Part shown: positions 2,943 to 35,495 of the stretch, one piece after another
Layout of the letters: every line of letters starts with the position of its first letter
Numbering within the stretch: position 1 is the stretch's first letter
Source of the DNA: an uncultured Clostridia bacterium
GTDB taxonomy: Bacteria > Bacillota > Clostridia > TANB77 > CAG-508
Assembly (NCBI GenBank): GCA_944390965.1
Contig: CALXRW010000001.1
Coordinates: forward strand, 19,273 to 83,272
Length of the DNA stretch: 64,000 nt
Direction of reading: 5' to 3'
Position numbers and translations under genes: made by a program
Notes under the pieces: generated by a model
Seen by the model: the letters and a program-made list of their open reading frames with translations, nothing else
Database searches by the model: none
Told to the model about the DNA's origin: nothing

Positions 2943-3163
2943 AATCTTCCCTCCCATTTTTGGTTTATTACGCATCTTCCAATTACTTTTACTGTTTTAT
3001 CTTACTATAAAACTAGATATTTTGCAACCTATCTTTTGTAGTAATTTTTTCTTTACATATACTATCAGAGGGACCAGAGATTTTGACAGTTATTGCACAA
3101 ATTTTAAAAATCAAAATCTGCTTATTTGCAATACTTCCAAAATCTTCGTTCCCTCTGATAGTG

Positions 3164-4225
3164 TTATTTTAATATTTCATTAATTTGTTCTGTTGTCATC
3201 ATTTCACTTGGTTCATCTTGTATCTGATATTTTTCTTTTAGCCTTAAAATTCTTTCCACACTTTTGTCAATTAATTTTTCATCTATCTTTCCTTGCTTTG
3301 CTTCTCGTAATAATTTTTGTATCTCTCTTTCTTTTTTTCTGTTATTTTTGCAAAGTAATAAGATATCATTCCCTGCCTGTATCGCTTCTTGCATAGGAAT
3401 TCCAAACACATGATAAAATACAAGTGATCTCATCATTAAATCATCTGTCATTACAATTCCATCATATTTTATTTTTTTTCTTACCAGATGTTGAATTGCC
3501 TTTTTAGAAATGGTAATAGGTTTATAATAATCTATATAATTAATTACCATATGTGAAGATAAAATTCCATCTACTCCTGCTTTCATAGCATCTTTAAATG
3601 GCTGTATATGTTTCATCATATTTTCTTTTTTCACATCAATTCTTGGAATTCTAAAATGACTATCTTTTTTGCTCATTCCATGTCCTGGAAAATGTTTTGC
3701 AATAGAAATAATACCTCCATCTTGCATTCCCTTTATTAATTGTACTCCCAGTTTAGATACTATCTTTTTGTTTTGGCTAATAGCCCTATCTCCTATAAAA
3801 TGATAATCATCTTCAGATGTTCTCAAATCCAAAACTGGTGCTAAATTCATATTCACACCTAAACTTTTTAAGGCTTTCCCTACTTTATATCCTTGCTCAT
3901 AAGCATAATTTTCATTGTTTTTTTCTCCTATTTTGCTTCCTAGCTGAAATCGATTAATCTCTTTTGGTAGGCGGTTTACTCTTCCTCCCTCTTGATCTAT
4001 ACTAATAAAAAGCGGGATATTTCCATTTTCACGATTTACTTGTTTTAATTTTTGTATTAATTCTTGCATTTGTTTAGTGTCATTAATATTTCTTTTAAAA
4101 AGAATAATTCCACCTACTTTATATTGCTTTATAAATTTAAGTGTATACTCATCTACATCATAACCATAAATGCCTATCATTAACATTTGTCCTATTTTCT
4201 CTTCTATGCTTAAATTTTTCTCCAT
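3164..4225 (-). CDS. Glycoside hydrolase family 3 (beta-N-acetylhexosaminidase, NagZ-like)
   Basis: KIGQMLMIGIYG and GGIILF motifs of the GH3 N-terminal domain, and KHFPGHG. The length is 353 aa. Confidence 0.75.
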   Translation of the reverse strand: MEKNLSIEEKIGQMLMIGIYGYDVDEYTLKFIKQYKVGGIILFKRNINDTKQMQELIQKLKQVNRENGNIPLFISIDQEGGRVNRLPKEINRFQLGSKIGEKNNENYAYEQGYKVGKALKSLGVNMNLAPVLDLRTSEDDYHFIGDRAISQNKKIVSKLGVQLIKGMQDGGIISIAKHFPGHGMSKKDSHFRIPRIDVKKENMMKHIQPFKDAMKAGVDGILSSHMVINYIDYYKPITISKKAIQHLVRKKIKYDGIVMTDDLMMRSLVFYHVFGIPMQEAIQAGNDILLLCKNNRKKEREIQKLLREAKQGKIDEKLIDKSVERILRLKEKYQIQDEPSEMMTTEQINEILK

Positions 4226-6598: not shown

Positions 6599-6634
6599 GA
6601 GTCGATTTCTATTGAGATTTCGACTTCTTTTTAG
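6599..6634 (+). terminator. Weak intrinsic terminator after the holin-like gene
   Basis: 6-7 bp GC stem (gagtcga...tcgact) followed by a T-run (cttcttttt). Confidence 0.35.
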
Positions 6635-6637
6635 AAT

Positions 6638-6750
6638 ATCCGGCTAATGACCTTATATTTTGAAATAAAAGCTCGAACAGCCTTCCGCTGCCGAATTACT
6701 CCTTGAACCTTGAGAGTTTTATTGAAAAATATAAGGTCATCAGCCGGATA
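6638..6750. repeat. Palindrome-embedded conserved 57-nt core element, copy A. It is a candidate structured RNA or miniature insertion.
   Basis: A 24-bp inverted repeat (atccggctaatgaccttatatttt / aaaatataaggtcatcagccggat) encloses the core aaagctcgaacagccttccgctgccgaattactccttgaaccttgagagtttt. The same core recurs at 22853-22909 and 54267-54323. Confidence 0.6.
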
Positions 6751-9457: not shown

Positions 9458-9503
9458 GAAACTTAACCTTGTTGCTCCAGAAAAATTTAGCAATTTTTCT
9501 TTT

Positions 9504-9530
9504 CAAAATATAAGGTCATTAGACGGATAT
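9504..9530. repeat. Solo copy of the copy-A right arm
   Basis: caaaatataaggtcattagacggata matches aaaatataaggtcatcagccggata from 6726-6750. No core is attached. Confidence 0.4.
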
Positions 9531-10366: not shown

Positions 10367-10403
10367 TCTTCGAAGAGCGGGCGATTAAAATCGCCCCTAC
10401 ATT
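10367..10403. repeat. REP-like unit (GC hairpin followed by CCTACA)
   Basis: cttcgaagagcgggcgattaaaatcgcccctacattt. Near-identical units lie at 24847, 35455, 43762 and 51136. Confidence 0.7.
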
Positions 10404-21074: not shown

Positions 21075-21337
21075 TTTTTTCTGGGTTCGTCAAGACGAAC
21101 CCCTACATTTTAAGCAATTCCTTTGTAGCACGGGCGATTAAAATCGCCCCTACGTTTTAGCAAATTCTTCGAAGAACGGGTCGCCGTGGGTGGCGACACC
21201 CTACATATGTTTCTAATGAATAGTGAATAATAAATAATTAATAATTTTTTGTAGGGGTCGGTCTTGACCGACCCAAAATGTTGAACAATACCACAAATTA
21301 TTCATTCTTCACTATTCATTTTTCATTATTCATTAAT
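21075..21337. repeat. Composite REP-like / miniature-element-like cluster
   Basis: Hairpins gggttcgtcaagacgaaccc-ctaca, gggcgattaaaatcgccc-ctac and gtcgccgtgggtggcgac-accctaca. An inverted gtagg-ggtcggtcttgaccgaccc sits between the inverted repeat taatgaatagtgaataat ... attattcattcttcactattcatt. The first 100 bp are near-identical to 51086-51180. Confidence 0.7.
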
Positions 21338-21347
21338 TGCACAAAAA

Positions 21348-21396
21348 AACTACCCATTTCGAGCATAACAATAATACTCGAAATGGATAGTTCCGA
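21348..21396 (-). terminator. Intrinsic terminator of secG
   Basis: On the minus strand, ccatttcgag-N17-ctcgaaatgg is followed by tagttttttttg. Confidence 0.6.
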
Positions 21397-21423
21397 TTAT
21401 TTTTTTTCTTTATTAAATTATAT

Positions 21424-21447
21424 TGTGTGTGTGTGTGTGTGTGTGTG
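21424..21447. repeat. (TG)12 dinucleotide microsatellite
   Basis: tgtgtgtgtgtgtgtgtgtgtgtg lies in the secG 3' region. Confidence 0.95.
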
Positions 21448-21570
21448 TTACTCTCCCAACGTTTTCCGCTTCTGTTCATTCTCTTCTCCCTTTTATTATT
21501 TTTCTGGATCGTTTCAAATTCCTTATATTGAAATATTCTTCATTTTAATTTTTGTGTTCAAATTATCCTT

Positions 21571-22782: not shown

Positions 22783-22972
22783 AATTCTACAGCAATGACA
22801 TTAAGTTAATTGAATGATTTTCTCTGTTTCAATTTCAATCATATATACCTATATTTTAAAGCAAAAGCTCGAACAGCCTGCTGCTTACGGATTACTCCTT
22901 GAACCTTGAGAGTTTTGCGACTAAAATATAGGTATATATGGTTGATTTTCTGTTTTCCTAACTTAATGTCAT
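22783..22972. repeat. Conserved 57-nt core element copy B inside a nested palindrome
   Basis: Inner inverted repeat caatcatatatacctatatttta / taaaatataggtatatatggttg, and outer inverted repeat acagcaatgacattaagtt / aacttaatgtcattgctg. The direct repeats gattttctctgtttc and gattttctgttttcc lie just outside the inner arms. The core differs from copy A at about 6 positions. Confidence 0.6.
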
Positions 22973-24846: not shown

Positions 24847-24885
24847 TTCTTTGAAGAACGGGCGATTAAAATCGCCCCTACATTT
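24847..24885. repeat. REP-like unit
   Basis: ctttgaagaacgggcgattaaaatcgcccctacatttttt. Confidence 0.7.
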
Positions 24886-28164: not shown

Positions 28165-28200
28165 TCTCCAAAGAGCGGGCGATGAAAATCGCCCTATCAT
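28165..28200. repeat. REP-like unit (degenerate)
   Basis: ctccaaagagcgggcgatgaaaatcgccctatcat. Confidence 0.55.
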
Positions 28201-35454: not shown

Positions 35455-35495
35455 TTCTTCGAAGAACAGGCGATTAAAATCTCCCCTACATTTTT
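35455..35495. repeat. REP-like unit (stem degraded)
   Basis: cttcgaagaacaggcgattaaaatctcccctacatttttt. Confidence 0.5.

Follow-up and report, generated by a model that had tools for sequence, protein, structure and literature searches.

The 64,000-nucleotide stretch of contig CALXRW010000001.1 analysed here (the window, to which all coordinates refer unless an L number is given), from an uncultured Clostridia bacterium, carries four loci at which G+C-rich hairpins of the repetitive extragenic palindrome (REP) type are joined to A+T-rich heptamer runs: A (the 21075-21337 region), B (43728-44012), C (51089-51395), and D (53038-53091). These loci are probably copies of a small-palindrome mosaic, built of REP hairpins and heptamer arms and resembling the bacterial interspersed mosaic elements (BIMEs), that lies in the 5′ leaders of a multi-copy family of pilin-like genes. 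A sequence-only reading of the same DNA had variously suggested a miniature transposon-like element, a promoter, and a cause of gene duplication, and none of these is supported; the mosaic makes up, or at least sits in, the 5′ leader of an apparently phase-variable family of surface proteins. The host is a spore-forming, low-G+C member of the Clostridia from the human gut. The G+C content is 26–36% in the window and 29% in the genome, the proteins encoded in the window include GerAC, FtsH, and SecG, and genes identical to those of the window were found solely on human-gut metagenome contigs. Because the GC skew is negative across the whole plus strand and the majority of the genes lie on the minus strand, the minus strand is probably the leading strand.

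We counted matches to the arm 17-mer AATGAATAGTGAATAAT with up to three mismatches and compared the count with 100 shuffles of the window. The window holds 17 matches versus 2.4 expected, none of the 100 shuffles reaches 17, and every match lies within 21215-21334, 43863-44012, 51166-51332, or 53075-53091. GTAGGGG heads are similarly in excess (13 matches versus 1.6 expected), and the loci have longer blocks in common, of 65 nt at 89% identity (D12) and 55 nt at 85% identity (D16). These motif counts and the anatomy described below bear out the view that the repeats are composites of REP units and an inverted-repeat pair. Loci A, B, and C had been located correctly in the sequence-only reading, with B and C drawn slightly too narrow and the first REP unit of B overlooked, and the half arm noticed near 53075-53092 corresponds to the arm match of locus D at 53075-53091.

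Each REP unit consists of a GTAG head, a G+C-rich hairpin, and a kept tail, (G)TTCTTCGAAGAAATTGCTTAAAAT, of 25 nt with a TTCGAA palindrome, and the units follow one another with a period of 47–49 nt (family D1). We found 17 units in the 64 kb, all intergenic, with one called open reading frame (ORF) entering two units at locus B. The GTAG head is on the minus strand in 14 of them, the three exceptions being the central units of the composites. We distinguish REP1, REP2, REP3, and central units, all of which start with GTAG(G) except for one GTAC and one GATA. Along the minus strand, the modules of each locus follow the same order: a (TGAATAR)n run, a short spacer starting with TTGTG, an inverted REP (...CCCCTAC), an inverted heptamer run, and then REP3, REP2, and REP1 head-to-tail, so that two or three head-to-tail units close each mosaic.

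At locus A, REP1 (GTAGGGGTTCGTCTTGACGAACCC, 21083-21106, minus) precedes the first pilin-like paralogue, whose start codon (21057) is 25 nt away. It is adjoined by the 47-nt REP2 unit, GTAGGGGCGATTTTAATCGCCC with the tail GTGCTACAAAGGAATTGCTTAAAAT (21107-21153, minus), a member of the seven-copy family D1, and by the REP3 unit, GTAGGGTGTCGCCACCCACGGCGACCC with the palindromic tail GTTCTTCGAAGAATTTGCTAAAAC (21154-21204, minus), of family D16. The core beyond comprises an arm of 4.6 TAATGAA copies (21214-21245, plus), distal and devoid of stops when read along the gene-sense minus strand; the central REP GTAGGGGTCGGTCTTGACCGACCC (21251-21274, plus), opposite in orientation to the array; and a second arm of 5.6 copies (21297-21334, minus) with stops in all three minus-strand frames. 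At locus C, REP1 (51089-51112) and REP2 (51138-51159), both minus, stand directly upstream of the ribosome-binding site (RBS) and ATG (51063) of the second paralogue. The core of locus C (51166-51395) is rearranged into a short arm (51166-51182), a 68-nt hairpin module (51183-51250), two further arms (51251-51278 and 51301-51332), a truncated opposite-orientation REP (51338-51356), and a degenerate arm remnant at ~51388-51395. Locus B has no pilin-like gene downstream and lies between convergent genes. Its REP1 (43728-43751), REP2 (43777-43798), and degenerate REP3 (43827-43850) are arranged head-to-tail on the minus strand, and its core (43862-44012) contains an arm (43862-43879), ~65 nt of extra spacer, an opposite REP (43949-43974), and an arm (43989-44012). 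Locus D is a partial copy with a REP3 (53038-53064, head minus), 85% identical to that of locus A (D16), and one arm (53074-53091), and it abuts an unlike 106-nt palindromic element. The proposed enclosure of an inverted gtagg hairpin by the inverted-repeat pair is thus seen at A (21251-21274) and B (43949-43974) but not at C, where the hairpin (51338-51356) follows the plus arm and only the degenerate remnant lies beyond.

Further hairpins and an apparently altered gene end were observed at these loci. The 68-nt nested-hairpin module GCGACAGCTCCCTTACATAAGGGAGATGGTGAGAAGCACCAGAGGG, present once in the window between the heptamer runs of locus C, is also found in two homologue leaders (L173 ~2480-2610, and L178; loci fetched from elsewhere are cited by L numbers) and has no Rfam match. 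Another class of small hairpins, GTCCCAAATGGGAC with its variants, lacks the GTAG head; it occurs at locus B (43700-43727) and, in the L177, L179, and L183 leaders, just upstream of the RBS after REP1. Also at locus B, a convergent DUF4364 ORF on the plus strand (242 aa in all ten samples) runs, at 43671-43805, ~44 codons beyond its Pfam domain, through two GTCCC...GGGAC hairpins and REP1, to a stop in the REP2 loop; apparently the natural C-terminus of this gene was either lengthened by the repeat block or lost to it.

The REP hairpins are maintained by compensatory change. Among nine distinct variants of the REP1/central class from the window and related contigs, 98.6% of the cells are paired and three of the eight pairs are altered on both sides (12 cells); none of 500 shuffles reaches the covariation score, and sliding the partner strand abolishes the pairing. 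The outer GGG/CCC and inner GTC/GAC pairs are constant, and the three middle pairs vary among TTC/GAA, ATG/CAT, ACG/CGT, CTC/GAG, and TCG/CGA. The REP3 variants likewise exchange GTCGCC/GGCGAC with GTCGGC/GCCGAC in a compensatory manner. GTAG stands immediately 5′ of the stems, which are generally 8–9 bp with loops of 2–4 nt: the REP1/central class has an 8-bp stem and a 4-nt loop, REP2 has a stem of 7–8 bp, and in REP3 the stem is shorter and the loop longer. The region 21055-21345 folds far below its shuffles on both strands (z ~ −6.5), and in the folds of both strands the arms pair as a ~35-bp stem with the central REP as its cap. In the closely related contig L191 (~2260-2290, GGGTCGATCTTGACCGACCCCTAC), the central REP of locus C is whole and its loop is inverted, versus the truncated form in the window (51338-51375); close relatives thus differ in their hairpins through inverted loops and deletions.

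The two paralogues share 53% protein identity and a pilin-like N-terminal segment, and their family has more than 4000 detected homologues. Neither has a Pfam match, even at E ≤ 10; the family profile gives a weak match to the PDB entry 1y4j (SUMF2) with E = 0.02 over 53 positions, and the AlphaFold model of paralogue 1 has a pLDDT of 45, too low for use. The label of sulfatase-modifying factor, given to both genes in the sequence-only reading, is hinted at only weakly by the profile match. The mosaic lies between promoter and RBS at A and C and upstream of homologues of at least 60% identity elsewhere; in all of the latter that we examined, REP units stand directly upstream of the RBS, some leaders having REP units only. 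Homologues of 60–70% identity occupy unrelated sites: they are found between genes for HD-domain and SMC proteins, in front of gatC, and behind other genes. No part of the mosaic was found upstream of homologues of 42% identity or less.

Single modules were gained and lost between copies. The entire block, with its order kept, is present in L172 and L173, in whose leaders the REP2 unit is precisely missing, and the REP array alone, with or without one arm, is present in L177-L183. The arm-REP core is missing from the L177 and L180 leaders, and REP2 lacks its GTAG head in L179. In L124, from another species, the core occurs alone between convergent genes and an inverted REP3 stands between its arms. 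This piecemeal presence fits a mosaic of separately gained and lost units that is now the standard leader of the gene family in one lineage. A look for empty sites in related strains had been suggested, and no orthologous one was seen: locus B is base-for-base identical in ten conspecific samples, and at loci A and C the contigs of other samples have the same block or end inside it.

The near-identity of the 5′ regions of the two paralogues is confirmed, with 93% over 114 nt for 21040-21153 versus 51046-51159 and 87.5% over 184 nt. A duplication of the genes mediated by the repeats, which had been surmised, is not supported, since the proteins are only 53% identical and the near-identity is confined to ~100 nt comprising REP2, REP1, and the RBS. 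Between A and C, the identity is 96% in the 75 nt before the ATG, 77% in the first 90 nt of the coding sequence, and 59% in the rest of it; among eight family members, the mean identity is 74% in the upstream segment and 70% in the coding body. Being a feature within one genome and limited to REP2-REP1-RBS, the near-identity suggests that old paralogues underwent gene conversion or unit replacement, and not that a recent duplication took place; we interpret it as intragenomic homogenisation. The suggestion that the repeats provide the promoter is not supported either. Among sigma-70-like sites, the best ones precede the mosaic, none inside it exceeds the shuffle expectation, and at locus A the mosaic is downstream of a leader ORF and a terminator. 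A promoter-like TTGACA-17-TAAATT is located at 51454-51426 (minus), outside the mosaic, and TTGACA sites are found upstream of the leader in L172, L173, L179, and L180. REP1 and REP2 are terminator-like solely on the plus (antisense) strand, and the gene-sense hairpins are not followed by T runs.

The leader ORF upstream of locus A (21333-21479, minus) has its own RBS, with a GGGAG/AGGAG motif preceding its ATG, and encodes 48 aa, MNRSGKRWESNT(HT)n. It contains a (CA)12 tract at 21424-21447, the only dinucleotide array in the window. The tract length at locus A differs among samples (n = 12, 13, and 14), and at another paralogue it is 10 versus 11. A strong intrinsic terminator with a 20-bp stem and a T run (21347-21393, minus), kept in L170, L172, L173, and L177, lies between the leader ORF and the mosaic. 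At five of five loci, two frames stop 16–25 nt before the stem, and the third enters or crosses the terminator. In the window, the leader ORF is in the frame that reads through the terminator, and this long frame is ended by the TAA of the first heptamer (21335-21333), as it is in L173 in its n+1 frame. A leader ORF with (CA)n is also present in L001, L002, L005, L170, L172, L173, L175, L177, and L180. Judged from these sequence features, the (CA)n leader ORF and its terminator look like a pil1-type phase-variable attenuator of the pilin-like gene. Two contigs from other samples, L006 (1-180) and L007 (1-155), correspond to window positions 21400-21570 downstream of secG and carry a related ORF, MNKGEKHWKSDAHS..., without the CA tract, after which they diverge; strains therefore differ at the site behind secG. 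Both contigs end before any replacement for the cassette is visible.

The arms are period-7 tandem runs of 3.6–5.6 copies each, and Tandem Repeats Finder placed them at 21214-21245, 21297-21335, 43989-44018, 51251-51275, and 51301-51332. L170, which carries a 97% orthologue, has one additional TATTCAC unit compared with the window. The arms are accordingly slippage-prone heptanucleotide simple repeats, not the terminal repeats of a transposon. Read as TGAATAR, a run has stops in all three frames, and its complementary strand has none. Outside the window, species-representative genomes of GTDB contain the arm 17-mer in at least 119 stretches, mainly of gut and rumen Oscillospiraceae, Ruminococcus, Acutalibacteraceae, and Bacteroidota; none of the stretches listed matches the window. 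It also occurs in IMG/VR viral contigs of 47–61% G+C, as longer heptamer runs beside G+C-rich hairpins, and one of these (L014) has an arm-hairpin-arm layout like that of the window. In two IMG/VR contigs of 60% G+C (L015 6270-6570 and L022 13250-13560), there are three alternations of a long (AATGAATAGTGAAT)n run and the 47-nt G+C-rich unit GCCTGGCTCGGCGTAGCAAGCGAGCGTTAGCGAGACGCGGAGACGGC; the same A+T-rich heptamers therefore occur inside a very G+C-rich genome.

The neighbourhood of the arms was compared with random positions in the same loci. Among the matches listed (126 occurrences), 86% are in runs of at least three units. An inverted run follows within 300 nt downstream in 22% (control, 1%), a G+C-rich hairpin lies within 120 nt in 23% (control, 5%), and GTAGGG within 300 nt in 22% (control, 9%). 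In 57 of 125 cases from this set, the end of a long same-strand ORF falls inside the run or no more than 100 nt upstream of it, and the opposite orientation is seen in 10 of 125. We consider it possible, though the idea is put forward tentatively, that the (TGAATAR)n runs are a functional module common to several phyla: an all-frame stop pad that is placed in sense orientation after gene ends directly before a hairpin, and as inverted pairs at sites of convergent transcription. In this lineage, the module would have been joined with GTAG-REPs in the leaders of phase-variable surface-protein genes, where it would end the ON-frame leader peptide right after the attenuator terminator. A literature search with ten spellings of the arm found no relevant paper on a TGAATAA/TGAATAG unit. 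A likeness of AGTGAATAA to the DnaA box was set aside because there is one mismatch only with an implausible, overlapping spacing of 7 bp, and resemblances to Fur-box-type repeats and to the −35 elements of forespore sigma factors were considered and dropped.

The REP units may have spread as single-stranded-DNA hairpin elements by means of a REP-associated tyrosine transposase (RAYT), by recombination between the repeated tails, or by both. In transcripts, the ~35-bp arm stem and the REP hairpins would process or stabilise the 5′ end of the mRNA, the hairpins next to the RBS acting as 5′ stabilisers and the arm stem as the processing site. The mosaic hairpins may also terminate antisense transcripts, and the heptamer runs would stop translation in every frame. 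Correia elements in mRNAs undergo RNase III processing, and, by analogy with such Correia-type miniature inverted-repeat transposable elements (MITEs), the arm stem may be a substrate for a double-strand-specific RNase or may have a stabilising effect on the message. A RAYT-like gene is present in a Ruminococcus metagenome-assembled genome (L066 3642-4124, minus; NCBIfam NF047646, E = 4e-21, 75.4 bits versus a cut-off of 80), the sole match of our tblastn RAYT search, and this locus also carries an arm and GTAG hairpins. One GTAG hairpin is located inside the coding sequence of this gene (GTAGGGACGACCATTGGTCGTCC, encoding VGTTIGRP), and another follows just after its stop codon.

Several points weigh against the BIME-like mosaic. 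The tblastn search, with an approximate E. coli RAYT query, found no RAYT in the window or in the low-G+C relative loci. The array is mainly head-to-tail instead of alternating as in the BIMEs of E. coli. Both strands fold equally well, so folding cannot separate a role in RNA from one in DNA. The bias of the heptamer runs towards ORF ends is partly forced, since 19 of the 57 ORFs are stopped by the run itself. Finally, with no orthologous empty site and an invariant locus B among the samples, the case for mobility comes only from differences between paralogues and between species.

An unlikely alternative sees in the block a 5′ leader RNA dedicated to cis-regulation of the pilin-like family, with hairpins that evolved in place for regulation, with locus B and the solo units as decayed remnants or secondary recruitments. 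The fixed order and kept REP1-RBS junction before many family members at unrelated sites, the covarying stems, and the link at locus A to a phase-variable attenuator whose long frame stops in the first heptamer all agree with such an RNA. However, REP2 stands alone at four unrelated operon junctions (10379-10400, minus; 24860-24881; 28177-28198, degenerate; and 35468-35489), each a junction of co-directional genes with the unit ~47 nt before the next start codon, and a REP1-like unit with a GTAC head (53616-53639) and a REP3 unit (locus D) occur elsewhere. The complete block at B lies between convergent genes without a family gene, the modules are individually dispensable, and by eye there are no conserved unpaired positions apart from GTAG and the repeated tail. 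No Rfam family matches either: searches of the whole window at the gathering threshold, of locus A at E ≤ 5, and of 18 related loci returned only tRNAs and chance-level matches. A tRNA scan of the window found none.

Less probable still is that the arm-REP-arm core is a classical MITE, that is, a deletion derivative of an insertion sequence with the arms as terminal inverted repeats, moved in trans by the transposase of that sequence. The part of the miniature-element idea that holds is the composite with inverted arms: imperfect inverted arms of 17–38 nt surround a core of ~50–110 nt in several copies, the paralogous L177 and L180 leaders lack the core (AATTAATGA joined directly to TTCACTATTCATT), and in L124 the core alone stands between convergent genes in another species. 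Other observations speak against a MITE. Read directly, the arm boundaries of A, B, and C show no target-site duplication, and the core-less L177 shows none. The arms are tandem heptamers of strain-variable copy number, which are also found singly, in direct orientation, and in unrelated phyla, and their boundaries differ by whole heptamers between L170 and the window. The enclosed unit switches class, from REP1-like here to REP3 in L124, and modules come and go singly. No transposase was noticed beside the arms in ~140 arm-bearing fetched loci, although no systematic screen was made.

The remaining alternative, that the arm similarity is an A+T-rich low-complexity coincidence beside ordinary terminator hairpins, draws on the 29% G+C of the genome, the simple period-7 arms, and the terminator-like plus-strand REP1 and REP2, but it is very improbable in view of the excess of arm matches confined to four loci (17 versus 2.4), the shared D12 and D16 blocks, the identical module order that all loci have in common with other genomes, and the lack of T runs after the gene-sense hairpins. 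The sequence-only reading had itself named this coincidence as its refutation, and that test fails because the arm recurs at further loci and in genomes other than this one.

Two other repeat elements were observed in the window. An element of ~125 nt with 25-nt inverted repeats (TATCCGGCTNATGACCTTATATTTT ... AAAATATAAGGTCATNAGCCGGATA) is present at 6630-6750, 22826-22946, and 54233-54353, with a lone end at 9496-9529, and its resemblance to a classical MITE is closer than that of the REP-heptamer mosaic. The 106-nt element abutting locus D (53092-53197) is a near-perfect palindrome (ACTGACAGAGGTGAT.GAGATTTTGACAGC...) with a DNA fold z of −13.5; it is repeated at 3061-3164 and is also found upstream of a homologous gene in another genome (L172 ~2400-2500).

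The mosaic adds a covariation-supported GTAG-REP family in an uncultured gut Firmicute to elements known almost entirely from Proteobacteria, with a few other phyla. As the leader of a large, fast-evolving, and apparently phase-variable surface-protein family, it offers a place to examine REP hairpins in mRNA processing, stability, and insulation in Gram-positive bacteria. The heptamer arm, found next to hairpins in many contigs of viruses, Bacteroidota, and Clostridia of gut and rumen, may be an overlooked general feature of gene ends. The repeats also break metagenome assemblies at these loci, which affects the recovery of the pilin-like gene family.

Parts of the mosaic and its leader can be compared with known systems. 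In Streptococcus gallolyticus, phase variation of pil1 by leader-peptide attenuation is experimentally established (PMC3894217). As appears to be the case at locus A, a short repeat tract in a leader ORF sets the frame there, and only the long frame crosses a premature terminator before the pilus-like gene (PMC3894217). The pil1 repeat is GCAGA instead of the dinucleotide (CA)n, and the host lineage and gene family differ. Unlike in pil1, the long frame here ends in a heptamer arm of the mosaic, and the putative switch is known from sequence alone.

Heptanucleotide simple sequence repeats of prokaryotes are a known, unexplained class. They include long simple sequence repeats (Mrazek 2007, as summarised in PMC4679880), and TAACTGA repeats are found in Beggiatoaceae, Cyanobacteria, and Bacteroidetes (PMC4679880). 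Like these, the arms are intergenic period-7 runs, and the features in common include 2–6 copies, stop triplets, a patchy distribution across phyla, and a position near gene ends or starts (PMC4679880). Both the tandem period of 7 and the copy-number change between strains that mark this class are seen in the arms. In contrast to the TAACTGA-type repeats, the unit here is TGAATAA/TGAATAG and often forms inverted pairs around a G+C-rich hairpin. The Correia/NEMIS, ERIC, and RUP MITEs resemble the mosaic in having a ~120-nt core, inverted arms, and a long stem in the 5′ untranslated region (PMC3733652). Of the marks of a MITE, the terminal inverted repeats are represented by the imperfect arms, which pair over ~35 bp, but no target-site duplication is visible; moreover, the arms here are tandem heptamers of variable length and the centre is an interchangeable REP.

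The closest likeness is to the GTAG-REPs and BIMEs of Proteobacteria with their defining partner, a REP-flanked RAYT (TnpA_REP) gene in the same genome; there, too, an unpaired GTAG stands 5′ of a short, imperfect, G+C-rich palindrome (PMC3733652, PMC2817692, PMC6006769). The rules used for REP searches are a GTAG or GTGG 0–2 nt 5′ of a hairpin, a fully paired basal stem of 7–20 nt, and a loop of 2–5 nt (PMC6006769), and the units of the mosaic have both the head and the compensated stem of the GTAG-REP sequence rules. The GTAG super-family and head-tail REP arrays have been described (PMC3733652), and in the 2013 survey GTAG repeats were reported only in Proteobacteria, Cyanobacteria, Chloroflexi, and the PVC group (PMC3733652). 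As in Proteobacteria, the units here are extragenic and clustered, including head-tail arrays, with compensated stems and several classes per genome. In contrast, the host is a low-G+C Firmicute, the units have a 25-nt TTCGAA tail, and heptamer arms are part of the cluster. The regular spacing (47–49 nt) and conserved linkers of BIMEs are present, but the orientation does not alternate and only a single unit is inverted; because of this head-to-tail orientation, we call the mosaic BIME-like and not a member of the BIMEs.

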